A stretch of 11,578 nt of DNA. Origin: an uncultured Bacilli bacterium. Lineage in GTDB: Bacteria; Bacillota_I; Bacilli_A; RF39; UBA660. The first letter of the stretch is position 1. Every line of letters begins with the position of its first letter. Below, in pieces: positions 72-11,578 of this stretch. Both the position numbers and the translations under genes were made by a program. A model generated the notes under the pieces. It was not told the origin of the DNA. It worked only from the letters and a program-made list of their open reading frames with translations, and did no database searches. The stretch lies in assembly GCA_947624175.1 (NCBI GenBank), contig CANQJD010000054.1, positions 1 through 11,578 on the forward strand, given 5' to 3'.

Positions 72-146
72 TGGAGCAGCTGACGGGAATCGAACCCGCG
101 TCCTAGCCTTGGCAAGGCCATATTCGAGCCACTAAACTACAGCTGC
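72..146 (-). tRNA. tRNA-Gly (anticodon GCC), 75 nt with encoded CCA
   Basis: The reverse complement folds as a cloverleaf. Acceptor GCAGCTG/CAGCTGC, anticodon arm TGGCC-TTGCCAA-GGCTA (GCC), T-arm GCGGG-TTCGATT-CCCGT, 3' CCA. Confidence 0.9.
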
Positions 147-148
147 AT

Positions 149-222
149 TGGAGGGGCCAGTCGGATTTGAACCAACGATCAAGGAGTTGCAGTCCACTGC
201 CTTACCACTTGGCTATGACCCC
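149..222 (-). tRNA. tRNA-Cys (anticodon GCA), 74 nt with encoded CCA
   Basis: The reverse complement reads GGGGTCA TA GCCAAGTGGTAAGGC ... CTGCAAC ... GTTGG TTCAAAT CCGAC TGGCCCC T CCA. The D and T arms closely resemble the Bacillus-type tRNA-Cys. It is separated from tRNA-Gly by only 2 nt, so the two are co-transcribed. Confidence 0.9.
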
Positions 223-228
223 ATGCAC

Positions 229-264
229 TTAAGATTATAACAAACAATTAAAAGAAAATCAACT
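229..264. repeat. Left copy of an imperfect direct repeat flanking the accessory segment. It coincides with the tRNA promoter.
   Basis: Block ttaagattataacaaa (229-244) matches ttaagaattataacaaa (7561-7577) with one indel. Block aaaatcaact (255-264) equals 7588-7597. The 10-nt spacer between the blocks is unrelated. Weaker similarity continues to about 218 vs 7549. Confidence 0.45.
234..262 (-). promoter_or_regulatory. Sigma-70-type promoter of the tRNA-Cys/tRNA-Gly operon
   Basis: On the minus strand, -35 TTGATT (+262-257), a 17-nt spacer, and an extended -10 TGtTATAAT (+242-234). The predicted start is ~5 nt upstream of the tRNA-Cys 5' end (222). Confidence 0.5.
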
Positions 265-322
265 GAAATTTTTTATTTTGTACAAAATATTATATTCTAA
301 AAAATAAAAACTGATAAAATAA

Positions 323-363: not shown

Positions 364-384
364 AGTCGTAGAATAAATAATTCT
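364..384. repeat. Left 21-bp inverted repeat (IR-L) AGTCGTAGAATAAATAATTCT
   Basis: It is the perfect reverse complement of 1483-1503. It contains an internal dyad AGAAT-AAATA-ATTCT, as expected for a recombinase core site. Confidence 0.85.
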
Positions 385-530
385 TTGACTTCTTTCTTTT
401 AGATTATAACATATAAATTGAATTTTGTTAATAATTTTTATAAATTTTTGTCGAAAAATATTTTATATATTGGAATTTAACAAAAAAATATAAGTAATCC
501 TTGTAAAATAAAGGATTGGAGGTGAAAAAT

Positions 531-1478
531 ATGTTTCATTCTAATAATATGCAAAAGAAAAAAATTTTATTTGATGAAATATTAAAACAATGGTTGAATT
601 CAAAAAAAAATATAAAAATCCAAACATATCAAAAATATGAAAACTTAATTAGACTTAATCTCAATAATAATTTAGGTAAAATTACAATATCTGAAATAAA
701 ACAATTAGATATTGTTAATTTCTTTGAAGATTTAACAAAGAAATGTGTTTCTATTTCTACCCAAAAAACTTTGTTTTATATTATAAATTCAGCTTTAAAA
801 TTTGCATATCAAAATAAGTATTGCAAATATATTGATTTAAAAATTATAAAATTTAAATCTTCTATACCAAAAATTCAAGTCTTTTCTAGAGAAATCCAAC
901 AAAAACTTGAAGAAGAATTAAAAAAGAATTTAAATATTCGAAAAGTTTGTTTGCTACTTTGTCTTTATACAGGACTTAGAATTGGAGAAATATGTGGTTT
1001 AAAATGGGAAGATATTGATTTTGATAATAAATCTATACATATAAAAAGAACTATTGAAAGAATCAAAAATGCTAATAAAGAAAGTACTTCTAAAACAATT
1101 TTAATTGAAAGTACTCCTAAAAGTATTACTTCAGAAAGAATTATTCCAATACCTGATTTTTTAATAGAATACTTAAAGAAATATCAAAATTCTGATAATT
1201 ATTATATTTTATCCAATGACGAAACTTTATATGATACAAGACAATTTGAAGCCTTTTATGCTAGGACTTTAAAGAAAATTGGTATTGATCATGTAAATTT
1301 TCATACTTTAAGACATACTTTTGCAACTAGATCAATTGAAGCAAAAATGGATATAAAAACTTTAAGTGAAATATTAGGACATTCATCGATTGAAATAACT
1401 TTAAAACTATATGTTCATCCATCATATGAACTAAAAAAGCAATCAATTGAAAGTTTAGTTAAGTTTATGGCTAATTAA
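531..1478 (+). CDS. Tyrosine site-specific recombinase (phage-integrase family)
   Basis: 315 aa from ATG 531, with an RBS GGAGGTG at 518-524. The ORF track begins at an upstream TTG at 516. The N-terminal core-binding region is Lys-rich. Catalytic signature: GLRIGE (Arg), HTLRHTFAT (His-x-x-Arg), LGHSSIEITLKLYVH with the nucleophile Tyr codon at 1410-1412. Confidence 0.9.
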   Translation: MFHSNNMQKKKILFDEILKQWLNSKKNIKIQTYQKYENLIRLNLNNNLGKITISEIKQLDIVNFFEDLTKKCVSISTQKTLFYIINSALKFAYQNKYCKYIDLKIIKFKSSIPKIQVFSREIQQKLEEELKKNLNIRKVCLLLCLYTGLRIGEICGLKWEDIDFDNKSIHIKRTIERIKNANKESTSKTILIESTPKSITSERIIPIPDFLIEYLKKYQNSDNYYILSNDETLYDTRQFEAFYARTLKKIGIDHVNFHTLRHTFATRSIEAKMDIKTLSEILGHSSIEITLKLYVHPSYELKKQSIESLVKFMAN

Positions 1479-1482
1479 TCAT

Positions 1483-1503
1483 AGAATTATTTATTCTACG
1501 ACT
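1483..1503. repeat. Right 21-bp inverted repeat (IR-R) AGAATTATTTATTCTACGACT
   Basis: Perfect reverse complement of 364-384. It starts 5 nt after the recombinase stop and ends 4 nt before the RBS of the downstream ATPase gene. Confidence 0.85.
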
Positions 1504-1520: not shown

Positions 1521-4175
1521 ATGGATAGTTGTATTTTAAGTGAACTTAACGATGGATACATTGGAATAGATATTTTAGAAATATCTTCAATTCCAGATAT
1601 ATCAATTTTAGGAAACATTAAAGAAGATGACTGTGTAAATAATATTAAAAAGAGTTTTGAAAAACTTTTAAGTGAGTTTTATATCTCATCTATTGAAAGA
1701 GAAAACATTGATTATGAAAATCAGGATTATTCCTTGAGTTTACTTTTTAAGTCTAATGAAATTAGTAATCAAACCTATAAAGCTAACGTTAGTATTTATA
1801 TAGTTATAAGAGGTTTATCAAACGATAAAAATTATTTAATCCATAAAATACAAGAAATAAAAGATGCTATTAAACTTAATTTAAGTTTTTCGAAATATAC
1901 AACTAAAGAAGTAAGTTCTAAAGAAACATTACTAAACGATTTAAAAAATATGTTACAAACGGAAAAAAGATTAATTATTAAAGAAACTAAAAATCAAAAT
2001 CTTCAAAATGCATATTTACCAAGCATTTTAACATTTGATTTATTTCCTAAAAAATCAACTAATTTTACAAAAATTATTAATACTTTAATGGAATTTCCAA
2101 ATGCGTTAATTATTTTTGATTTAATTCCGACTAAATTAAATAATAAAGAAAAAGAAAATTTAAATTATACTTTAAATACTATTTCACTTTTAAAAAATGA
2201 ATATGAAAGAAATCAAAGTAACTTTTCAATGATATTACCAGATAAAAATATCTTTGCCTACAATTACTATGAAGAAAACCAAGATAATATGCTTTTTGCT
2301 TATAATATAGTAGTTGCATCTTTATACAATGCTAATAATATAAGCAATAATTTAATTAGTGAATTATCTTTAGGAGAAAAAGAGGAATTTATTAATTTAA
2401 AAAGTGTTCCATTATCAAATGATGAAGTAGATATAGAAACTTATTTTGATACCTTATCTTGGGTTATAAATGAAATAGTCTTAGATAAATTTAATTCTAA
2501 TAATGAATTAAGGAGATTACCATTTATTATTACATTGGGGGAAGCTAGTGAGTTTTTTAGATTACCATATGGTGATAATCATTTAACAGCAGGAATTAAT
2601 ATAAGTAAAGTAGATATAAACCAAAAAGAATATAATAAAAAAGTTATTGATAATGGAGATATAATGGTGGGATCCTTAAAGAACTCCAATAATAATAAAA
2701 TTGGATTTACTTTAAATGATTTAACCAAACATATGCTTATTGTTGGAACTCCTGGTAGTGGTAAAACAACATTTTCAGTTAGTTTGCTTGATAGAATTTG
2801 GAAAGATTTTAAAATACCATTTTTGGTTATTGAACCAGCTAAGAATGAATATAGAGCTATGATAGATAGTATTCCTGATATTCAAGTATTTACACCAGGA
2901 AAAGATTTTATTTCACCTTATATAATAAATCCATTTATTCCACCTAAAGGAGTAAAGTTACAAAGTTATAAAACCGTTTTAAAAACTGCCTTTGGAGCAG
3001 CTATTCAACTTACAACTCCACTTGATAAAATATTTGAAGATACACTGGATGAGTGCTATTCAAGAGCTGGCTGGTTACCTTTTCATACTATCGAAGATGA
3101 ACATGAAATATTTACAATGGATGATTTTTTAAAAACATTTATGGAAGTATTTGAAAGAATTGGTTATAAAGGTGAAGCATCCAATATTGGAAAAGCAGGA
3201 TATGTAAGATTTAAAAGTCTTCTTAGAGTCTTTGGTTCATATAATACAATTCCAATTGAGGATATTCTAACGAGACCAACAATTATAGAATTAGCAGCTA
3301 TTGAAAATGAAGAGCAAAAATCCTTAATTATTGCTTTACTATTATTAAATATTCAGTCCTATGTAAATGCCAATTATGTCGGAGATGGCGAGATGCGTAA
3401 CTTACTACTTTTAGAAGAAGCTCATGTATTACTTGCATCATCTAATTCAAGTTTTGATAGTGAAAGTCCAAGTATGGTTGCTAAAAAGTTACTTACAAGA
3501 ATGCTTGCTGAGATTCGAAGTTTAGGAGTTGGAATTGTAATAGCCGATCAAAGTCCAGAAAAAGTTACTACCGATATTGTTAAACTTACAAATATTAAAC
3601 TAGCTTTTAACTTAGTTGAGAAGAACGACCGTCAAATTCTTGGCGACTCCACAGATATGAAAGAAAATCAAGTTAATGCCCTTGCTAAGTTAAGACCAGG
3701 AGAAGCATATTTTTATATGAATGGTTTAAATGAGCCAGAAGAAGTTATAACAGAAGATTATCGAAAGAAAGTTCATATTAGAACTACTATATCAGATGCT
3801 GAGATTGCTGATAAAACTACATATTGGTTAACAAGACAAGATAAATTATTACCTCATCGAGAATGTAATTTTATTAATTGTAAAAATACTTTCTGTGACT
3901 ATAAAATAAAAGAAGAAGCAACAGAGTATGCTAGAAGAATTTATGCCAAATATTTTAATCAAGATAGTGATAATAAAGATAAATTAAAAGAAGTATATAA
4001 AAATATTTTAAAAGAAGTAGAAGAATATAAAAAAGGTTCGATTGATGATAAATTATTAACTTGTGTTAAAGTTCATTTTTTAAGATATATCTATTATGAA
4101 ACGAAAATCTTATTTTCTTTAAAAGGAATGGAAAATACTTTAAAAAATGAATTAAATATGGAAGGTGGTGATTAA
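1521..4175 (+). CDS. Large P-loop ATPase of the FtsK/HerA/VirB4 (DUF87-like) superfamily with an unrecognised ~400-aa N-terminal region
   Basis: Likely start ATG 1521 with RBS AAGAGG at 1507-1512. The ORF track starts at TTG 1515. Walker A GTPGSGKTT (2745-2771). Walker B variant LLLLEEAH (3402-3425). An RSLGVGIVIADQSPE box (3525-3569) resembles the Arg-finger/ATQ-P motif of FtsK/HerA/VirB4 ATPases. C-terminal H-x2-C-x4-C-x4-C cluster (3855-3896). Confidence 0.8.
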   Translation: MDSCILSELNDGYIGIDILEISSIPDISILGNIKEDDCVNNIKKSFEKLLSEFYISSIERENIDYENQDYSLSLLFKSNEISNQTYKANVSIYIVIRGLSNDKNYLIHKIQEIKDAIKLNLSFSKYTTKEVSSKETLLNDLKNMLQTEKRLIIKETKNQNLQNAYLPSILTFDLFPKKSTNFTKIINTLMEFPNALIIFDLIPTKLNNKEKENLNYTLNTISLLKNEYERNQSNFSMILPDKNIFAYNYYEENQDNMLFAYNIVVASLYNANNISNNLISELSLGEKEEFINLKSVPLSNDEVDIETYFDTLSWVINEIVLDKFNSNNELRRLPFIITLGEASEFFRLPYGDNHLTAGINISKVDINQKEYNKKVIDNGDIMVGSLKNSNNNKIGFTLNDLTKHMLIVGTPGSGKTTFSVSLLDRIWKDFKIPFLVIEPAKNEYRAMIDSIPDIQVFTPGKDFISPYIINPFIPPKGVKLQSYKTVLKTAFGAAIQLTTPLDKIFEDTLDECYSRAGWLPFHTIEDEHEIFTMDDFLKTFMEVFERIGYKGEASNIGKAGYVRFKSLLRVFGSYNTIPIEDILTRPTIIELAAIENEEQKSLIIALLLLNIQSYVNANYVGDGEMRNLLLLEEAHVLLASSNSSFDSESPSMVAKKLLTRMLAEIRSLGVGIVIADQSPEKVTTDIVKLTNIKLAFNLVEKNDRQILGDSTDMKENQVNALAKLRPGEAYFYMNGLNEPEEVITEDYRKKVHIRTTISDAEIADKTTYWLTRQDKLLPHRECNFINCKNTFCDYKIKEEATEYARRIYAKYFNQDSDNKDKLKEVYKNILKEVEEYKKGSIDDKLLTCVKVHFLRYIYYETKILFSLKGMENTLKNELNMEGGD

Positions 4176-4397
4176 ATGAACGAATGGAGTGATAGGGATG
4201 AATTTTTAGCAGGTTTAAGAGAGAAAACAAATGATCTTGAAGATATGTCTGAAGAACAATTAAAGAAAATTGCTAATGAAGATTTAAATGATAAAAAAAG
4301 CAAAGATACTGATGATAGTAGTGATGACATGGAAAATGATATTGATGCTAAAACCCCTAAAAAACCAATAAAAGAAGAGGATGAGCCAATTATATAA
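4176..4397 (+). CDS. Small (73 aa) highly acidic protein, translationally coupled to the ATPase
   Basis: The ATG directly abuts the ATPase TAA stop (4173-4175). An SD AAGGTGG lies inside the end of the upstream gene. About 26 of 73 residues are Asp or Glu, with Lys-rich patches. No motif was recognised. Confidence 0.6.
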   Translation: MNEWSDRDEFLAGLREKTNDLEDMSEEQLKKIANEDLNDKKSKDTDDSSDDMENDIDAKTPKKPIKEEDEPII

Positions 4398-4418
4398 TTT
4401 TATGGAGGTGAAGTAAAT

Positions 4419-5546
4419 ATGGAATTATATAGTGTTATCAAAAATGATAGACCAGGAAATGAATTAGTTTGGAAATCACCGAATGAAGATTTTAAAAACA
4501 ATACTCAATTAATTGTAATGGAAAGTGAAGAAGCCTTATTTGTTAAAGATGGTATTGTTGTATCAACATTTGAGGGTGGTAAATATACTTTAAATACTGA
4601 AAACTATCCATTTATTGAAAAATTAAAAAATGCCATGAGCGATGGAGTAAGTGCCTTTAATTGCAAAGTATATTTTGTTGATAAAACCCATAAAATGGAA
4701 CTATTTTGGGGAACTGATTCACCAATTCAAATTCGAGATTATGAATATGGATTTGCAGTTGGAGTTCGAGCTAGAGGTTCCTACAATATAGAAATTTCTG
4801 ATTCTAAAAAGTTTTTAATTAAATTAGTTGGTTTAAATACAGTTTCTTATACTGAAGAAAATGTCAGGGATCAATTTAGAACTTTTTTCCAATCAAAGAT
4901 AAAACTTGAAATAGCTACTGTTATGAAAAATTGTAAATATACAATTTTGGATATGAATACAGAGCTTGAAAATATTGCTAATTTAGTAGTTAACAGTTTA
5001 GCAGATAAGCTAGATGAATATGGAGTTAGATTAGTTGATTTTTATATTTCAGATATATCAATTCCTGAAGATGATCCTAATTATAGAATAATTAATGAAG
5101 CTTATGCTAAAGCCCATGTTGGAAAAATTGAAACTAAAGTCCAAGGTGATGATTGGGGTAGAATTGCTGCTAAAGAATTAATGAAAGATATTGCAAATAA
5201 TCCTAATTCAGGAGGAATGGCTAATACGGGAGCTGGAATTGGTATGGGACTTGGAGCAGCCGGAATGTTTGGTAATTTAGCTAACCAAATGTTTGCTCCT
5301 GCTAAAGAGACAATTACACCAGCACCTACTGAAAATAAAACTTCAAGATTTGCTCCTAAAAAGGAGTCTTCTGAAGAAAGCATCAAATGTCCAAATTGTG
5401 GAAATGACAATTCAAAAGGTAGTGCTTTTTGTTCAAAATGTGGTACTAAACTTGTAACTGAAAAATATATATGTAAAAATTGTGGCAAAGAATTACCTAA
5501 TGATGTAGTATTTTGTAGTCAATGTGGAACTAAGAGGGAAGGGTAA
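4419..5546 (+). CDS. SPFH/Band-7 family protein (Band_7_1, B. subtilis YdjI-like) with a Gly/Met/Ala-rich linker and two C-terminal zinc ribbons
   Basis: RBS GGAGGTG at 4404-4410. The N-terminus (LVWKSP...LIVMESEEALFVKDG...GGKYTLNTENYPF...KVYFVDKTHKMELFWGTDSPI...) fits the Band_7_1 pattern as I recall it. Low-complexity NPNSGGMANTGAGIGMGLGAAGMFGNLANQMF. Then CPNCG...CSKCG and CKNCG...CSQCG (about 5388-5530). Confidence 0.75.
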   Translation: MELYSVIKNDRPGNELVWKSPNEDFKNNTQLIVMESEEALFVKDGIVVSTFEGGKYTLNTENYPFIEKLKNAMSDGVSAFNCKVYFVDKTHKMELFWGTDSPIQIRDYEYGFAVGVRARGSYNIEISDSKKFLIKLVGLNTVSYTEENVRDQFRTFFQSKIKLEIATVMKNCKYTILDMNTELENIANLVVNSLADKLDEYGVRLVDFYISDISIPEDDPNYRIINEAYAKAHVGKIETKVQGDDWGRIAAKELMKDIANNPNSGGMANTGAGIGMGLGAAGMFGNLANQMFAPAKETITPAPTENKTSRFAPKKESSEESIKCPNCGNDNSKGSAFCSKCGTKLVTEKYICKNCGKELPNDVVFCSQCGTKREG

Positions 5547-5549
5547 TTT

Positions 5550-6197
5550 ATGAAAAATAATAATATTTTAAAGATAATTATTACAATTATTTTGTTAGCA
5601 ATTATTGATTCAATCGTTTTCTTAACAGTAAAAGAATTTGATGCAGCAAGAATTATAAATATTAGTATACTTAATTTAGTTGTAATTTGTTTACTTATAT
5701 TATCTTTTAAAAATAATGAAGGTAAATATAAATTTTTAGAATATTCTAAAATTACAATTATTGCAATATATACAATTATTACTTTTATATTAAGTATTAC
5801 ACTTATTGCAGTTAAAGCTAATTTAACTTTAACTTTAGTTTCTCAAATATTAGTAACAGGTATATCTTTAGTACTTATATTAACTAATCAAATGAGTGAT
5901 AATAATATAATTGAAAATACTACAAAAGTTAATGAAAAGGTAGATAATGTAAAAGTTATAAGTAATAAATTAAAAACTATCTTAAAATTAATAACAGATA
6001 GAGACTTATATAAAAAAGTTGAAAAAGTATATGATAATGCCAGAAGTTTAAAAGTTGATGTTAATAATAGTCAAGATATTGATAATGAAATTTTAACATT
6101 AATAGGAATGCTTGATAGAGAAATTAAAATGCAACATGATGTTACGGATCTTTTAAATAAAATAAATAATAAATTTATTGAAAGGAATAATTTATAG
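5550..6197 (+). CDS. Polytopic membrane protein (4 predicted transmembrane helices) with a C-terminal coiled-coil-like soluble region. YdjH-like.
   Basis: It starts 3 nt after the upstream stop. It has four hydrophobic stretches in the first ~110 aa and a charged, Lys/Asp-rich C-terminus. Confidence 0.65.
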   Translation: MKNNNILKIIITIILLAIIDSIVFLTVKEFDAARIINISILNLVVICLLILSFKNNEGKYKFLEYSKITIIAIYTIITFILSITLIAVKANLTLTLVSQILVTGISLVLILTNQMSDNNIIENTTKVNEKVDNVKVISNKLKTILKLITDRDLYKKVEKVYDNARSLKVDVNNSQDIDNEILTLIGMLDREIKMQHDVTDLLNKINNKFIERNNL

Positions 6198-6208
6198 GAG
6201 TGTGAAGT

Positions 6209-7426
6209 ATGGTAAAATTAAAAGATGCAAAGTGCCCAAATTGTGGTGCAAATATTGAAGTAAATGATAAATTGGAGAAATCTATTTGTCAATATTGTGG
6301 TAGTACGGTTATGGTTGATGAAGCCATTGAAAAGTATAAGTTAGAAATAAGTGGTAAGGTTGAAGTTGAAGGTATTAAGGGTAGAAGTAGTAAGATAAAA
6401 CAAGCTATTAAACATAAAAAATTAAAAGAATATGATAAAGCAACAAAAATTTTAAAAGAAGTTATTGCTGATGATGAATTTGATATTGAGGCTTTAGCTG
6501 AACTTGTTAAATTAGATATTGATATTATTGAAAATAGTGATTTTGATGAAAATCTTGATAGTAGACAAAGTGATGAAAAAAGTTTCTTATTAATAGATGA
6601 AATTATTAATACTTATAATCGTATTAGTGATATTGATGAAAGTGAAGGGGAAACTTATGATATGTTAGATGGATATCATGAGAAAGTTACTCATTACTGT
6701 GATGTTGCTAATAAATTGATTGATGACAATGAATCATTAGATAAATATCTTGAAAAATTAAATGATGATTATGATATAGTTAGTAAAATAAGTGATAAAG
6801 CAGCCGAAGAATGGTGTAAGGAATTATCTCAAAGAATGCATTTGGCAGACTTTAATAACTATTATAAAGTTAGGTATCGTCAGCCAGGGGCTACTGGATT
6901 TAGTTGGTATCGTTTATCAAGTTTCAAAGAAATTGCTAGAAATGGAATTATAGAAAGTCATTATAGTTGGATACATGATGGAGAATATGGTAATCCTTCA
7001 ATAGCTGATTTATGGATAAAACCAGAGCCTGATAAAGAGTTTAAAAGCCTTGATGAAGTTAAAAAAGCATTGGATGGCTTCTTAGAATATTCAAATGAAT
7101 ATGTTGAAGAAAATTCAAAATCTAAAAATAGTGAAATAGATAAAGCAAATAGAAAGTTAGATAGACAAAATACTGTAATTGATGCTAAAATAAAAATGAA
7201 ATATGTTAAAATTGGAGTTATGGCATTTATAATACTATGTATGGTAATTTGGTCTATTTCAATATTAGTAAAAAGTTTTGTTGGATTTATTGCTTTTGTT
7301 ATCTTGGTTGATTCTTGGGCTATATCTTTACCATTTATGTCTATTCAAGATACGTTATATGATATAAAGGGTAAGAAGAGAGAAAAAGAAATAAATAAAA
7401 GTAGTAAAAGAGATCATGTTAAATAA
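6209..7426 (+). CDS. Zinc-ribbon protein with an acidic central region and two C-terminal transmembrane helices. YdjG-like.
   Basis: RBS AGGAG at 6196-6200. N-terminal CPNCG...CQYCG (about 6236-6302). An Asp/Glu-rich central part. C-terminal hydrophobic stretches VMAFIILCMVIWSISILV and FVGFIAFVILVDSWAISLPF. Confidence 0.7.
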   Translation: MVKLKDAKCPNCGANIEVNDKLEKSICQYCGSTVMVDEAIEKYKLEISGKVEVEGIKGRSSKIKQAIKHKKLKEYDKATKILKEVIADDEFDIEALAELVKLDIDIIENSDFDENLDSRQSDEKSFLLIDEIINTYNRISDIDESEGETYDMLDGYHEKVTHYCDVANKLIDDNESLDKYLEKLNDDYDIVSKISDKAAEEWCKELSQRMHLADFNNYYKVRYRQPGATGFSWYRLSSFKEIARNGIIESHYSWIHDGEYGNPSIADLWIKPEPDKEFKSLDEVKKALDGFLEYSNEYVEENSKSKNSEIDKANRKLDRQNTVIDAKIKMKYVKIGVMAFIILCMVIWSISILVKSFVGFIAFVILVDSWAISLPFMSIQDTLYDIKGKKREKEINKSSKRDHVK

Positions 7427-7449
7427 TTAAATAAGATATTAAAAATAGG

Positions 7450-7479
7450 GAATGATGAAGATTTTATCATTCTTTTTTT
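7450..7479 (+). terminator. Rho-independent terminator ending the 5-gene operon
   Basis: Stem GAATGAT (7450-7456), a 9-nt loop, stem ATCATTC (7466-7472), then T7 (7473-7479). It lies 24 nt after the last stop codon. Confidence 0.75.
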
Positions 7480-7483
7480 GACT

Positions 7484-7512
7484 AAAAAAATAAGACATAT
7501 AAAAGATGTCTT
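7484..7512 (-). terminator. Minus-strand rho-independent terminator (palindrome AAGACAT-N7-ATGTCTT plus a U-tract)
   Basis: Perfect 7-bp inverted repeat at 7492-7512. Read on the minus strand it is followed by U7 (the A-run at +7484-7490). Together with 7450-7479 it forms a back-to-back terminator pair. Confidence 0.45.
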
Positions 7513-7560
7513 GTTAAATTTATATAAAGTAAATACTAAAATTTAGACCATAACTATACA
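7484..7560 (-). ncRNA. Candidate ~75-nt small RNA or orphan transcript. It starts from the duplicated promoter and ends at the minus-strand terminator.
   Basis: A promoter copy at 7567-7595 (minus strand), a predicted start near 7560, and a terminator at 7484-7512. The only internal ORF is AUG GUC UAA, so it is not a coding sequence. Confidence 0.25.
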
Positions 7561-7597
7561 TTAAGAATTATAACAAAGAAAGTTTGTAAAATCAACT
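7561..7597. repeat. Right copy of the imperfect direct repeat flanking the accessory segment
   Basis: See 229-264. There are two conserved blocks (17 and 10 nt) separated by a 10-nt divergent spacer. Confidence 0.45.
7567..7595 (-). promoter_or_regulatory. Second (orphan) copy of the tRNA-type promoter
   Basis: On the minus strand, -35 TTGATT (+7595-7590), a 17-nt spacer, and -10 TATAAT (+7572-7567). The hexamers and spacing match the tRNA promoter at 234-262. No tRNA or CDS lies downstream on that strand. Confidence 0.4.
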
Positions 7598-7697
7598 AAA
7601 AATTATCAATTTTTGAAATAAATTAATAAATTTAAAAGGTAAAAAATGGTATCTAAAAAAAATTTAAAATTTAGGTGTAAATTAAGATGTCAAAGGG

Positions 7698-7760: not shown

Positions 7761-10037
7761 ATGATAAAAACAAAATTGCCAGTCTTATTCATTAAAAATC
7801 ATGAAATCTTCCCGTATTCTGATACAAAAATTGAATTTTCCGATACCAATTTAAAGAAAACGATCTCTTTAGGAGAAAGTGTCTATGATAATTGTGTTTT
7901 TATCATTCATCAAAAAAGTGAAGATACATTTGAAAACTTAAATAACCTAAATTTAGGAATTATTGCTAAAATTAAACTTAAAATTGATATGCCTAATGGT
8001 AATATGCGAGTTACTTTAAGAGGATTAAAGAGAGCTATTATTGGAAGTATAAACGAAGAAGAAGGTTTATATGATGCTGATGTATCTGTGATTACTCAAG
8101 AAGAAATTGATCCTATTGAAGAAATTGCTATGTCTAGAAGTCTTTATAAAGAAATTGATAAATACGTAAAAGAGACTGATACTAATGATTTTTTAGAAGT
8201 TAAAGATATTCTTGATATTGATAAATTAACGGATATTACAACCAATTTATTACCACTTAATCATGACAGGAAACTTAAATATTTAAAAGAAATATCACCA
8301 GTTAAAAGATTAAAAATGTTACTTGATGATATTGAATATGAATTATCAATTATTGAAATTGAAAAACAAATAGATATTAAAGTTAGTAAGAAATTAGATG
8401 ACAGTCAAAAAGAATTTTATTTAAGAGAAAAGTTAGGAGTTATTAAAGAAGAATTACATGAGAATGTTGATGATTTAACATTGTTAGAAGAAAAAATTAA
8501 AAATTTAGATGCTCCTCAAAGAATAAAAGAAAGATTAGGAATTGAATTAAATCGTTTTAAAACATCTCCTTCAAATTCACCAGAAATTGGCATAATTAGA
8601 AACTATATTGATATATTATTAAATTTACCTTGGAATGTTTCAACTTCGGAAAATTTTGATATCGATAAAATTAAAGAAACTTTAGAAAAAAGTCATTTCG
8701 GACTAGAGGAGACCAAGAGTAGAATAATCGAACATATTATGGTTAAACATTACACGGAAAGAGAAAATGTCCCAATTCTTTGTTTAGTTGGACCACCAGG
8801 GGTTGGTAAAACTAGTATTGCGAGAAGTATTGCTAAGGCCTTAAATTTAAAGTGTGTTAAGATATCAGTTGGTGGAGTTAATGATGAAGCTGAAATAATT
8901 GGACATAGAAGAACCTATGTTGGAGCAGCCCCTGGTCGGATTATGTCTGGTATTTCCAAAGTTGGAGTTAATAATCCGGTTTTCATTATTGATGAAGTTG
9001 ATAAAATGACCAAAGATTTTAAAGGAGACCCAGTAAGTGCTTTACTTGAAGTTTTAGATAAAGGCCAAAATAGTAGATTTGTTGACCACTTTATTGATGA
9101 AGAATTTGATTTATCAAAAGTTATGTTTATTTTAACTGCTAACTATATTGATTTAGTACCTGCAGAACTAAGAGATAGAATGGAAATAATTGAAGTTCCT
9201 AGTTATAGTGAATATGAAAAGATTAAAATTGCGAAAGAACATATTATCCCTAAATTAATGGAAGAATATAAAATAGCTAATGAAGAAGTAAATATAACTT
9301 CCAAAACTTTAACCAATATTATTAGATATTATACCCATGAAAGTGGAGTTCGAGAATTAGAAAGAGTTTTAGATAAGGTTTATAGAAAGTATGTTGTTAG
9401 TAAACTTGAAAAGAAAGTACCCCTTGATCCTAATAAAAAATTAGAATTAATTTTAGGTATTCATAAGTATCAAATAAATCAAAATACAAGAAACAACAAA
9501 GGAGTAGTAACCGGTCTTTCTTATACTCCATATGGGGGAGATATTGTAAAAGTTGAAGTTATTTCTTATCCAGGGGACGGGAACATTAAAGTAACGGGTC
9601 AAGTTGGAGATGTAATGGAAGAATCAATTAAAGTTGCTTTTGACTATATTAAAGGAAATTATAAAAACTTTAATTTGAATATTGATGAAATAAGACATAA
9701 TGATTTCCATATTCATATTCCATCAAATGCTATTAAAAAAGATGGACCAAGTGGTGGTATCACGATTACAACGGCCTTACTTTCTTATCTTAAAAATGTT
9801 ATTATCACGAATACAATCTCGATGTCTGGTGAGATTACTTTAACTGGTAAGATCCTTAAAGTTGGAGGTATTAAAGAAAAATTAATTGCAGCGATTAACA
9901 ACAACATCGATGTTATTTATATGCCACTTGCCAATAAGTCAGAAATTGAAAAGTTAGAATATATTTATAAAAATAAGTTAGATATTAACTATATTGATAA
10001 TTATCAAGAATTATATGATATTTTAATTGCCCCATAG
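7761..10037 (+). CDS. lon: ATP-dependent Lon protease (LonA type)
   Basis: The start is ATG 7761 with a strong SD. The ORF track starts at an upstream in-frame ATG at 7698 that lacks an RBS. The Lon N-terminal domain begins KLPVLFIKNHEIFPY. AAA+ Walker A GPPGVGKTS (8791-8817) and Walker B FIIDEVDK. Protease dyad DGPSGG (Ser codon 9750-9752) and TGKILKVGGIKEK (Lys). Confidence 0.95.
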   Translation: MIKTKLPVLFIKNHEIFPYSDTKIEFSDTNLKKTISLGESVYDNCVFIIHQKSEDTFENLNNLNLGIIAKIKLKIDMPNGNMRVTLRGLKRAIIGSINEEEGLYDADVSVITQEEIDPIEEIAMSRSLYKEIDKYVKETDTNDFLEVKDILDIDKLTDITTNLLPLNHDRKLKYLKEISPVKRLKMLLDDIEYELSIIEIEKQIDIKVSKKLDDSQKEFYLREKLGVIKEELHENVDDLTLLEEKIKNLDAPQRIKERLGIELNRFKTSPSNSPEIGIIRNYIDILLNLPWNVSTSENFDIDKIKETLEKSHFGLEETKSRIIEHIMVKHYTERENVPILCLVGPPGVGKTSIARSIAKALNLKCVKISVGGVNDEAEIIGHRRTYVGAAPGRIMSGISKVGVNNPVFIIDEVDKMTKDFKGDPVSALLEVLDKGQNSRFVDHFIDEEFDLSKVMFILTANYIDLVPAELRDRMEIIEVPSYSEYEKIKIAKEHIIPKLMEEYKIANEEVNITSKTLTNIIRYYTHESGVRELERVLDKVYRKYVVSKLEKKVPLDPNKKLELILGIHKYQINQNTRNNKGVVTGLSYTPYGGDIVKVEVISYPGDGNIKVTGQVGDVMEESIKVAFDYIKGNYKNFNLNIDEIRHNDFHIHIPSNAIKKDGPSGGITITTALLSYLKNVIITNTISMSGEITLTGKILKVGGIKEKLIAAINNNIDVIYMPLANKSEIEKLEYIYKNKLDINYIDNYQELYDILIAP

Positions 10038-10098: not shown

Positions 10099-10124
10099 TG
10101 AGATTAGTGAAGTAAGGTGTAAAA

Positions 10125-11578
10125 ATGAAGAGAAGTGAAGTAGATAGAACAAAATTAGCTCCAATGATGGCTAAATATATGGAAATTAAAGATAATTACG
10201 AAGATACATTAATCTTCTTTCGATTAGGGGACTTTTATGAAATGTTTTTTGAAGATGCAGAAATTGCAAGCAGAGAATTGAGTCTTACTTTAACGGGTAG
10301 AAATGCTGGACTTGATGAAAGAGTTCCAATGTGTGGTGTTCCTTATCATGCTTATCAAGGATATGTTTCAAAACTTATTGAAAAAGGTTATAAAGTTGCT
10401 ATCTGTGAACAATTGACAGATCCTAAAGAATCTAAAGGAATGGTTGAACGAGATATTGTGCAGGTAATTACAAAAGGAACGGTTTTAGACAACTTGAATT
10501 TTGCCAATGATAATAATTATATAGCAAGTATCTATGACTTTTCTTATTGTTATGCCTTAACCTATGCTGATATTTCAACGGGTGATATTTATTCCATGTT
10601 AATAAGTGATTTAGATAGTTTATATAGAGAATTAATTAATCATAATATTAAAGAAGTTATTGTTAATGATAAGATAAATAGAGAAATACTTTATAATTTA
10701 AAAACACTTTATAATATTTTAGTAACGGTAACTAATGAAGAAAAAGAATATCCTGATTATAAAGAAATCTATGAAGATATAAGTGATGTAAGACTATTAA
10801 CTTCGATTAAACATTTATTAACTTATGTAACGGAGACTAAAAAAAGTAGTTTAAAGTATTTAAAGAAAGTTATTATTAATAAAGAAGAAGATCATTTATT
10901 ATTTGATTTTCATACGAAAAAGAATTTAGAGTTAACGGAGACGATAAGAGATAATACAAGAAATAATTCTCTTTTATGGTTTTTAGATAAAACCAAAACC
11001 GCAATGGGAAGTAGATTATTAAAACAAAATTTATTATCTCCATTTACGGATATTAAAATAATTGAAAGACGATTTGATTATATTGAAAAACTTTTAACCA
11101 ATTTTATTACTAAAGAAAACTTAAGTAATTATTTAAATGATATTTATGATTTAGAAAGATTAATTGGGCGTATTAGTTATGGAAATTTAAATGCAAGAGA
11201 TATGTATCAATTATTAAAGTCTTTAAAAATGTTACCAAATATTAAAGAAGAACTCAAGAATATTGAATATGATAAGGAACTTAAAACTTTAGATAATATT
11301 GTTGAAATATTAGAAAAAAGTATTAATCCTGATGCCCCTTTAACTTTAAAAGAAGGAAATTTAATTAAAGATGGTTATAATCCGGAGTTAGATGAACTAA
11401 GAAGTATCAAGAATAATAGCAAAGACTTTATTTTAAGACAAGAAGAAGAAGAGAGAAAGCGAACCGGAATTAAAAATTTAAAGATTGGTTATAATAAAGT
11501 ATTTGGTTATTATATTGAAGTAAGTAAAATGAGTGTTCCTTTAGTTAAAGATGAATTTGGTTATATTAGAAAACAAAC
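10125..11578 (+). CDS. mutS: DNA mismatch repair protein MutS, 5' portion (about 484 aa). It continues past the window end.
   Basis: The N-terminus MKRSEVDRTKLAPMMAKYMEIKDNYEDTLIFFRLGDFYEMFFEDA carries the mismatch-binding GxFxE motif. Connector and core domains follow. There is no stop before 11578, which is why the ORF track does not list it. Confidence 0.95.
   Translation, partial: MKRSEVDRTKLAPMMAKYMEIKDNYEDTLIFFRLGDFYEMFFEDAEIASRELSLTLTGRNAGLDERVPMCGVPYHAYQGYVSKLIEKGYKVAICEQLTDPKESKGMVERDIVQVITKGTVLDNLNFANDNNYIASIYDFSYCYALTYADISTGDIYSMLISDLDSLYRELINHNIKEVIVNDKINREILYNLKTLYNILVTVTNEEKEYPDYKEIYEDISDVRLLTSIKHLLTYVTETKKSSLKYLKKVIINKEEDHLLFDFHTKKNLELTETIRDNTRNNSLLWFLDKTKTAMGSRLLKQNLLSPFTDIKIIERRFDYIEKLLTNFITKENLSNYLNDIYDLERLIGRISYGNLNARDMYQLLKSLKMLPNIKEELKNIEYDKELKTLDNIVEILEKSINPDAPLTLKEGNLIKDGYNPELDELRSIKNNSKDFILRQEEEERKRTGIKNLKIGYNKVFGYYIEVSKMSVPLVKDEFGYIRKQ

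Follow-up and report, generated by a model that had tools for sequence, protein, structure and literature searches.

We analyzed a contig of 11,578 nucleotides from an uncultured Bacilli bacterium (GenBank assembly GCA_947624175.1, contig CANQJD010000054.1; GTDB lineage RF39, UBA660). The whole of this stretch is called the window here. Its GC content is about 25%. Five plus-strand genes occupy 1521-7426, between a tyrosine recombinase gene and a hairpin. They encode a P-loop ATPase, a small acidic protein, an SPFH protein, a membrane protein, and a zinc-ribbon membrane protein (genes 1 to 5). Gene positions are in whole-window coordinates, and ATPase residues are numbered from the TTG at 1515. 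The five genes are co-oriented with successive gaps of 0, 21, 3, and 11 nt, as a preliminary description of the window had stated. All five proteins have homologues elsewhere, so the genes are real and not chance open reading frames (ORFs). They look like a single co-transcribed unit. An AAGAGG ribosome-binding site (1507-1512) precedes the ATG at 1521, and the database entry for the ATPase (P0001) has 884 aa, which agrees with a start there. The hairpin and its T-run plausibly form the operon terminator. The preliminary description called this terminator strong, but its dG is -12.1 kcal/mol (z, -2.76) and a consensus terminator scanner did not call it.

Gene 1 encodes an ATPase of the FtsK/HerA/VirB4 superfamily. 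It passes the Pfam DUF87/HerA family (PF01935) with 45.1 bits against a cut-off of 23.2, as had been expected. The protein contains a VirB4-type N-domain (residues ~1-375), a HerA/DUF87 P-loop core (~380-760), and a helical C-terminal domain (~775-886). Hydropathy gave no transmembrane (TM) segment. The motifs first reported for it are present and are invariant in 62 homologues. These are Walker A (GTPGSGKT, 411-418; G411-x-P-G-x-G-K417-T), Walker B (LLEEAH, 632-637; L-L-E634-E635-A-H, with Glu for the usual Asp), and R668 with the ADQSP box (677-681). The cysteine cluster sits in the helical C-terminal domain. C784, C794, and C850 are invariant in the same homologues, and the middle cysteine is nearly invariant. 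C850 was not part of the cluster as first described and brings the conserved cysteines to four, which are therefore candidate metal ligands in this domain.

The ATPase was modeled with AlphaFold2 using the 62 homologues (pLDDT, 80.7). The best Foldseek match of the full-length model in the PDB was TrwK, the VirB4 of the R388 type IV secretion system (T4SS), which it matched along its entire length (E = 1.7e-17). HerA hexamers came next. The N-domain alone also matched TrwK best, with EccE3 and EccE5 second. The N-terminal region, unrecognized in the preliminary description, is therefore an N-domain of the VirB4 type. In its sequence the core lies closer to HerA than to VirB4, and a profile search against PDB sequences returned HerA and not VirB4. 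The ATPase thus has the two-domain architecture of VirB4 and does not match its sequence profiles. No VirB4, CagE, or TraC family of Pfam or NCBIfam was found, and the only trace was a 17.6-bit match to TrbC_conju. The match to NCBIfam CedD, an archaeal DNA-translocating ATPase, was partial (E = 2e-22; 79 bits against a cut-off of 600). The NCBIfam HerA equivalogs also matched in part and far below cut-off. To our knowledge, VirB4-type ATPases occur only in secretion, conjugation, and DNA-transfer machines.

The ATPase family is conserved over its full ~890 aa at 45-66% identity. Scanning one genome per GTDB species, we recovered ATPase relatives from at least 568 species representatives of about 10 phyla. 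Carriers belong to the Clostridia, Bacilli, Erysipelotrichaceae, Acholeplasmataceae, Bacteroidota, Spirochaetota, Planctomycetota, Verrucomicrobiota, Synergistota, Actinomycetota, and Fibrobacteria. Among the cultured carriers are Ruminococcus albus, Faecalibacterium prausnitzii, Fretibacterium fastidiosum, Paludibacter, Bengtsoniella, Faecalicatena, and Modestobacter. Gene maps were made by simple ORF calling in the fetched loci (L numbers below), and genes were labeled by phmmer or jackhmmer.

The linkage of ATPase and SPFH genes, for which the preliminary description had proposed a neighborhood survey, is real and conserved. An SPFH gene is linked in 43/43 species-representative loci of the family with at least 6 kb downstream, and a protein with four TM helices (4-TM) is encoded in 40 of these 43. 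SPFH is missing solely at loci of distant ATPases (26-34% identity). An accessory zinc-ribbon protein is present in 31 of the 33 loci with both flanks. It is either a ~197-aa zinc-ribbon/TPR protein (ZnR-TPR) or a 360-400-aa zinc-ribbon/TM protein (ZnR-TM) related to gene 5. Upstream, many loci have genes for two further proteins, one of ~230 aa and the other a membrane protein with a YidD domain (PF01809, E = 4e-15). The YidD domain forms the C terminus of a 150-170-aa membrane protein just upstream of the ATPase and is absent from the window version. The closest relative, L086 (ATPase 66% identical), has the minimal layout of the window. It has an adjoining NUDIX gene and no recombinase.

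Gene 2 encodes a 73-aa protein with 34% D+E. It begins with MNEWSD, contains an RDEFLAGLR motif and an acidic tract, and ends in EEDEPII. It has no match in Pfam, NCBIfam, or PADLOC. Alignments match it to the 66-67-aa proteins of L086 and L006, its nearest relatives, and to the C-terminal module of longer acidic proteins from the same clade (L003, L009, and L010). The preliminary description recorded an acidic mini-protein and missed its significance, which is that relatives hold polymorphic toxins with acidic leaders at the same position. The 73-aa protein retains the leader motif and is a leader-only, toxin-less minimal cargo.

The gene after the ATPase is acidic in every locus, with 28-57% D+E among the clearly acidic ones. 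Its products range from 67 to 1374 aa and have no Sec signal. They share the N-terminal motif M-x-[DE]-[DE]-[FYW], often followed by S/V-x-D-T-S. The strict motif was present in 34 of 76 first-downstream genes compared with 11 of 1078 other ORFs (Fisher p, 1e-34). The C-termini are mutually unrelated (9% mean column identity). Their Pfam domains are DUF6782/SprT-like metallopeptidase (9), papain-fold glutamine deamidase (Gln_amidase, 3), TNT NAD+ glycohydrolase (2), WHH nuclease (2), Colicin-DNase (2), non-specific endonuclease (Endonuclea_NS_2, 1), and C39-like peptidase (1). Small variable genes encoding 60-170 aa come after the cargo gene in relatives. Ten of these small proteins were compared with Pfam. 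Nine had no match, and one had a sub-threshold match to DUF789 (E = 0.0057; 16.8 bits against 25.5). One and the same C-terminal module and small partner gene recur in distant taxa (Lachnospiraceae, L023; Acholeplasmataceae, L046). Some loci contain two cargo genes. The swappable toxin genes are flanked by the ATPase gene on one side and the genes of the membrane-scaffold module on the other. The cargo and small genes have the anatomy of polymorphic toxin-immunity cassettes (PMC3482391). The defining features of a polymorphic toxin system are found in the cluster family. In the window the leader stands alone, and no candidate immunity gene follows the 73-aa protein.

Further arrangements were seen around the cargo gene. 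L030 encodes five tandem paralogous polytopic membrane proteins of 184-213 aa (12670-15783) between the ATPase and the cargo gene, with homologues in L043. This array looks like the immunity arrays found beside membrane-targeting toxins. An acidic DUF6782/SprT-like HExxH metallopeptidase is paired with a conserved 98-aa protein at 12 loci from several phyla, sometimes beside a second cargo gene. The two may be a leader-processing peptidase and its partner and not a toxin-immunity pair. L090 lies on a Priestia megaterium plasmid (NZ_CP064271, 7116-13589). Its ATPase is 34% identical over 64% of the query. Downstream lies the gene for an acidic protein of 1135 aa built from TDTDTELQDD-type repeats, and the annotation shows no SPFH gene nearby. 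The pair of ATPase and acidic protein therefore seems older than the SPFH linkage.

Gene 3 encodes an SPFH protein with a Band_7_1 domain at residues 22-218 (PF13421, E = 2.3e-40). A Gly/Ala/Met-rich segment (~262-292) comes next, and two zinc ribbons of the CxxC...CxxC form follow at 323-345 and 351-371 (PF13240, PF12773). The Gly-rich segment is conserved and is also seen in relatives of other phyla. The protein has no TM segment by hydropathy and no sequence relative of solved structure. It is 41-63% identical to the products of the SPFH genes of L001, L003, and L005. Pfam family and architecture support a YdjI-type SPFH protein, as first proposed; the architecture of YdjI is taken from PMC8581546. 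The SPFH protein of L005 (Candidatus Azobacteroides, 14566-15684) has no zinc ribbons and by eye has a SHOCT-like end (KIKQLKEMFDFGAISQEEFDIVKQEILNKM). This suggests that the SPFH protein has an exchangeable C-terminal module.

Gene 4 encodes ~4 TM helices (7-114) and a cytoplasmic coiled-coil-like tail by hydropathy. It matches no Pfam family and has no TPM match at E <= 0.01. Its homologues lie directly 3' of the SPFH gene in L001, L003, and L005. It had been likened to YdjH of Bacillus subtilis. The analogy fails because YdjH is a TPM-phosphatase-domain protein (PMC11237479) and gene 4 is without TPM.

The gene 5 product has a zinc ribbon in its N-terminal part (C9/C12...C27/C30), which is followed by a TPR-like helical stretch and a variable middle. 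A double TM lies in the C-terminal part (~328-379). The zinc ribbons of genes 3 and 5 are as first described. YdjG is reported with a TF_Zn_Ribbon domain and a TM segment (PMC11237479). We defined a YdjG protein by N-terminal TF_Zn_Ribbon-type ribbon(s), an NTF2-like (YpeB-related) middle domain, and a TM segment. The suggested likeness of gene 5 to YdjG is one of architecture only (N-terminal TFIIB-type zinc ribbon and C-terminal TM). Gene 5 scored 22.3 bits against PF08271 (cut-off, 29), and some of its homologues carry PF08271. The family is small, with 48 matches, some of them titled "TFIIB-type zinc ribbon-containing protein." Jackhmmer from the ~360-aa ZnR-TM protein of the Bacteroidota clusters reaches relatives of gene 5, and the N terminus of gene 5 resembles the ZnR-TPR protein of other clusters.

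Table 1. Coordinates of the operon, its surroundings in the window, and selected features of related loci.
Locus	Feature	Position	Strand	Remarks
Window	ATPase (gene 1)	1521..4175	+	TTG alternative start at 1515; Pfam DUF87
Window	Acidic protein, 73 aa (gene 2)	4176..4397	+	Gap 0 after ATPase
Window	Soluble YdjI-type SPFH protein (gene 3)	4419..5546	+	Gap 21; PF13421
Window	Membrane protein, 215 aa, ~4 TM helices (gene 4)	5550..6197	+	Gap 3; hydropathy
Window	Zinc-ribbon/TM protein, 405 aa (gene 5)	6209..7426	+	Gap 11; alignment
Window	Hairpin and T-run	7448..7479	+	Likely intrinsic terminator of the operon
Window	Tyrosine recombinase, 315 aa from ATG at 531	531..1478	+	PF00589, E = 3e-31; PF14659
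Window	Inverted repeat, left arm, 25 nt	364..388		24/25 complementary to 1479-1503
Window	Inverted repeat, right arm	1479..1503		Ends 17 nt before the ATPase start codon
Window	Imperfect ~40-nt direct repeat, left copy	229..268		In front of tRNA-Cys; repeat, alignment, and promoter scans
Window	Imperfect direct repeat, right copy	7563..7601		Same scans
Window	tRNA-Gly and tRNA-Cys	72-222	-	
Window	lon	7761-10037		TIGR00763, 724 bits
Window	mutS, 5' part (MutS N-terminal portion)	10122-11578		ORF runs off the right window end
L037 (R. albus)	Inverted repeat	6629-6648/8087-8106		20 nt, 100% complementary
L053	Inverted repeat	3290-3318/4718-4746		29 nt, 97%
L075	Inverted repeat	5683-5705/7072-7094		23 nt, 100%
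L037	YidD-domain protein	9457-9942		About 22 other loci besides L037 and L028
L028	YidD-domain protein	9420-9869		
L016	DUF6782 protein and 98-aa protein	4915-6002		Eight more loci besides the four listed
L024	DUF6782 protein and 98-aa protein	6582-7600		
L040	DUF6782 protein and 98-aa protein	12631-13663		
L064	DUF6782 protein and 98-aa protein	12643-13931		

The recombinase gene upstream of the operon has Xer-like and invertase-like NCBIfam matches, all below cut-off. An inverted repeat of 25 nt brackets the gene exactly. Homologous recombinases lie directly upstream of the cluster in three other taxa (L037, L053, and L075) and are likewise bracketed (Table 1). In L047 and L066, short inverted-repeat pairs lie between the recombinase and the cluster instead. 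This layout recalls the Hin segment of Salmonella and by that analogy suggests phase-variable on/off expression of the cluster. The inverted form was not found: two other contigs with an identical recombinase share the orientation of the window, and a metagenome scan for the right junction of the window gave nothing. For the R. albus-type junction, a single metagenome contig (L091) was recovered, and it opens exactly with the initial base of the inverted-repeat arm. This start is suggestive; it fits heterogeneity at the site and is no proof of it.

The two copies of the direct repeat enclose the recombinase gene together with the operon, and each resembles a TTGATT-17-TATAAT promoter on the minus strand. 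They may mark the borders of an inserted segment, as a duplicated insertion site, or may simply be two similar promoters. The border reading is tentative because their identity is only about 74% in AT-rich DNA. The segment has no compositional sign of recent acquisition (GC, 0.19-0.33 inside and 0.22-0.33 outside). A look-up via the exact Lon protein found no empty insertion site on record. With lon and then mutS, the right flank is housekeeping. The preliminary description had taken the surroundings as typical of defense islands. With tRNA genes, lon, and mutS as its flanks, such a context is unsupported. The relatives lie in unrelated housekeeping contexts, with flanking genes that differ in each taxon, and PADLOC gave generic ATPase similarity only.

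We interpret the operon, with moderate confidence, as a minimal, toxin-less member of an undescribed ATPase-driven system for the export or delivery of polymorphic toxins. The reading is based on the VirB4-fold ATPase, the exchangeable toxins with leaders and no Sec signal, the dedicated membrane proteins, and the SPFH scaffold. In many clusters the membrane proteins include a YidD-like insertion factor. The gene content, folds, conserved linkage, and cargo polymorphism are as observed above. Complex formation, leader recognition, translocation, and phase variation would proceed as follows. The VirB4-like HerA-core ATPase, presumably hexameric like its relatives, would dock on a membrane platform that the 4-TM and zinc-ribbon/TM proteins build together. 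The soluble YdjI-type SPFH protein would be recruited to this platform as an oligomeric scaffold, by analogy with YdjI, whose membrane localization requires the membrane proteins YdjG and YdjH (PMC8581546). The ATPase or the zinc-ribbon/TPR partners would recognize the M-x-[DE]-[DE]-[FYW] motif and the polyanionic tract of the downstream protein. ATP hydrolysis would then drive the cargo to or across the membrane. The recombinase cassette may switch expression by inverting. We infer that a motor derived from DNA pumps engages a polyanionic peptide in this way. Because its cargo is reduced to the leader, the copy in the window may act on a small substrate that is not toxic, or on toxins whose genes lie elsewhere.

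The fullest form of this interpretation is a new export system of monoderm and diderm bacteria, with major gut commensals among them. A motor of the VirB4/HerA lineage would thread a polyanionic leader and its toxin through an SPFH-caged platform under the control of an invertible switch, and the window would hold the minimal form. We advance this version tentatively and with some doubt.

The cluster shares with polymorphic toxin systems (PMC3482391) an N-terminal trafficking region, a variable tract, exchangeable C-termini, and a small downstream gene. It also shares the WHH, TNT, colicin-DNase, and Tox-PL1-type deamidase domains with them. The 2012 list of trafficking modes for polymorphic toxins (PMC3482391) has neither the leader motif nor the machinery seen here. 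A 2025 survey from the same laboratory (PMC12419801) lists T4SS, the type VI, VII, and IX secretion systems, and MuF, and does not list the mode of this cluster. The preliminary description recognized no described system, and our searches agree. NCBIfam (June 2026) has no model for any partner protein and gave no family-specific match. PADLOC-DB v2 returned no full system and 0 matches for the five proteins scanned besides the ATPase. A description of the cluster was not found in the literature, of which coverage was incomplete and so no proof of absence. We rate the cluster as a polymorphic toxin system with a new trafficking module. Whether it deserves the name of a new secretion-system type is a weaker claim, possible but somewhat doubtful.

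Two secretion systems resemble the cluster in part. The ATPase has in common with VirB4/TrwK an N-domain of ~370 aa followed by a RecA-like P-loop domain, and in T4SS as proposed here an ATPase of this superfamily energizes effector export. The window ATPase differs in its lack of a VirB4/CagE/TraC sequence match and in its extra C-terminal four-Cys helical domain. Its partners are SPFH, 4-TM, zinc-ribbon, and sometimes YidD-like proteins, and no other T4SS genes are present. VirB3, VirB6, VirB8, VirB10, the VirD4 coupling protein, relaxase, and pilin were found neither in the window nor among the Pfam-annotated neighbors at six loci. The T4SS cargo signal is a C-terminal VirD4-binding domain, whereas here it would be an N-terminal acidic leader. 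The type VII secretion system (T7SS; EssC/EccC, LXG/WXG toxins) likewise has an FtsK/HerA-superfamily ATPase beside polymorphic toxins with small partner and immunity genes. Its small non-toxic WXG100 substrate is comparable to the 66-73-aa leader-only proteins. However, the T7SS ATPase has three domains, and the ATPase here has a single P-loop domain with no FHA or TM region. Neither the window nor the cargo proteins gave a WXG100 or LXG family match, and the membrane components are unrelated. The cluster also occurs in diderm phyla.

Several points weigh against export. No component that would cross the outer membrane is visible, though many carriers are diderm. A recognizable toxin domain is present in only ~20 of 54 cargo C-termini. 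Pfam offers no match for the small downstream genes, which makes their role in immunity a supposition. The cargo in the window has neither a toxin domain nor an immunity gene. The commonest "toxin," DUF6782 with its 98-aa partner, may be a core processing component because it is so widely conserved. The gene maps depend on the simple calling and labeling described above. The export of the acidic-leader cargo is itself a proposal. Finally, toxins beside a HerA-type ATPase would also fit intracellular abortive-infection systems.

This last alternative is the best of the others, and we consider it unlikely. The ATPase and membrane module would sense phage or membrane damage and release a toxin held by a small antitoxin. 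Among proteins of solved structure, those nearest in sequence to the ATPase core are HerA proteins, including those of the Sir2-HerA and DUF4297-HerA (Nezha) anti-phage complexes. As in these complexes and in MADS with mad8, a variable toxic effector is encoded beside a HerA-type core. The mad8 and HerA models of PADLOC match the core of the window ATPase, with generic, partial, and sub-threshold similarity, but the four partner proteins have no PADLOC match. The N-domain is VirB4-like and is not the effector-binding HAS-barrel of the defense HerA complexes. No NurA, Sir2, or DUF4297 partner was found in the window or in relatives with annotated neighborhoods. NADase and nuclease effectors are also typical of abortive infection; the cargo, however, has the layout of exported toxins, with a conserved leader that is long and acidic, a long disordered tract, swappable C-termini, and cognate small genes. 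The membrane/SPFH module is a further difference from the HerA-effector systems. The L001 cluster adjoins cas9, whereas the flanking genes are mostly housekeeping.

A PspA-independent module for membrane stress or organization is improbable. The ATPase would power a YdjGHI-like SPFH complex, and the acidic proteins would be passengers or regulators. The PspA-YdjGHI (SamGHI) system of B. subtilis shares with the cluster a soluble Band_7_1 SPFH protein with a low-complexity segment and C-terminal zinc fingers. In both, the SPFH gene neighbors genes for membrane proteins, and one of these proteins carries a TFIIB-type zinc ribbon at its N terminus. In operons related to the phage shock protein response, SPFH proteins are described together with partner ATPases (PMC11237479). 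Yet gene 4 lacks the TPM domain that defines YdjH, and the gene order differs. No pspA was found in the window, as noted earlier, or in six relatives with Pfam-annotated neighborhoods. The module is hard-wired to the ATPase and to acidic or toxin cargo, and a membrane-stress role leaves unexplained why a leader-bearing, acidic, often toxin-domain protein always comes after the ATPase.

A remnant or derivative of a conjugative or DNA-transfer system, in which the ATPase would move DNA and the polyacidic protein would be a DNA mimic or regulator, is very improbable: the VirB4-like fold, the partial CedD match, and the adjoining recombinase speak for it, but the annotated neighborhoods hold no T4SS families, the conserved partner set is unrelated to T4SS components, DNA transfer gives no reason to expect toxin-domain cargo, and tblastn of the ATPase against 72,556 plasmids and 50,697 phages gave distant core-only relatives and no full-length member. 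This and the membrane-stress alternative explain less of the evidence. The preliminary description had named a VirB4 in a decayed conjugative element, with the other genes as unrelated cargo, as the finding that would overturn it. The VirB4-like structure was found. The decayed element was rejected, with no T4SS partners and with non-T4SS partners that are conserved and not unrelated cargo.

The cluster looks like a toxin-delivery machine rather than a phage-defense or membrane-stress module. If this is true, at least several hundred species carry an unrecognized route for the deployment of antibacterial toxins. Among them are Faecalibacterium prausnitzii, Ruminococcus albus, Prevotella, Alistipes, and oral Fretibacterium. 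Polymorphic toxin biology would gain a new trafficking mode, and the Band_7_1 SPFH family would gain a concrete, genetically hard-wired client machine. The N-terminal leader motif would be a handle for finding new toxins and immunity genes. Even if the cluster serves intracellular defense, the combination of a VirB4-fold ATPase, an SPFH module, and exchangeable toxins has not been described before. The window version marks the minimal core of ATPase, leader peptide, SPFH, 4-TM, and ZnR-TM proteins. With only five genes, it is therefore a practical starting point for reconstitution.

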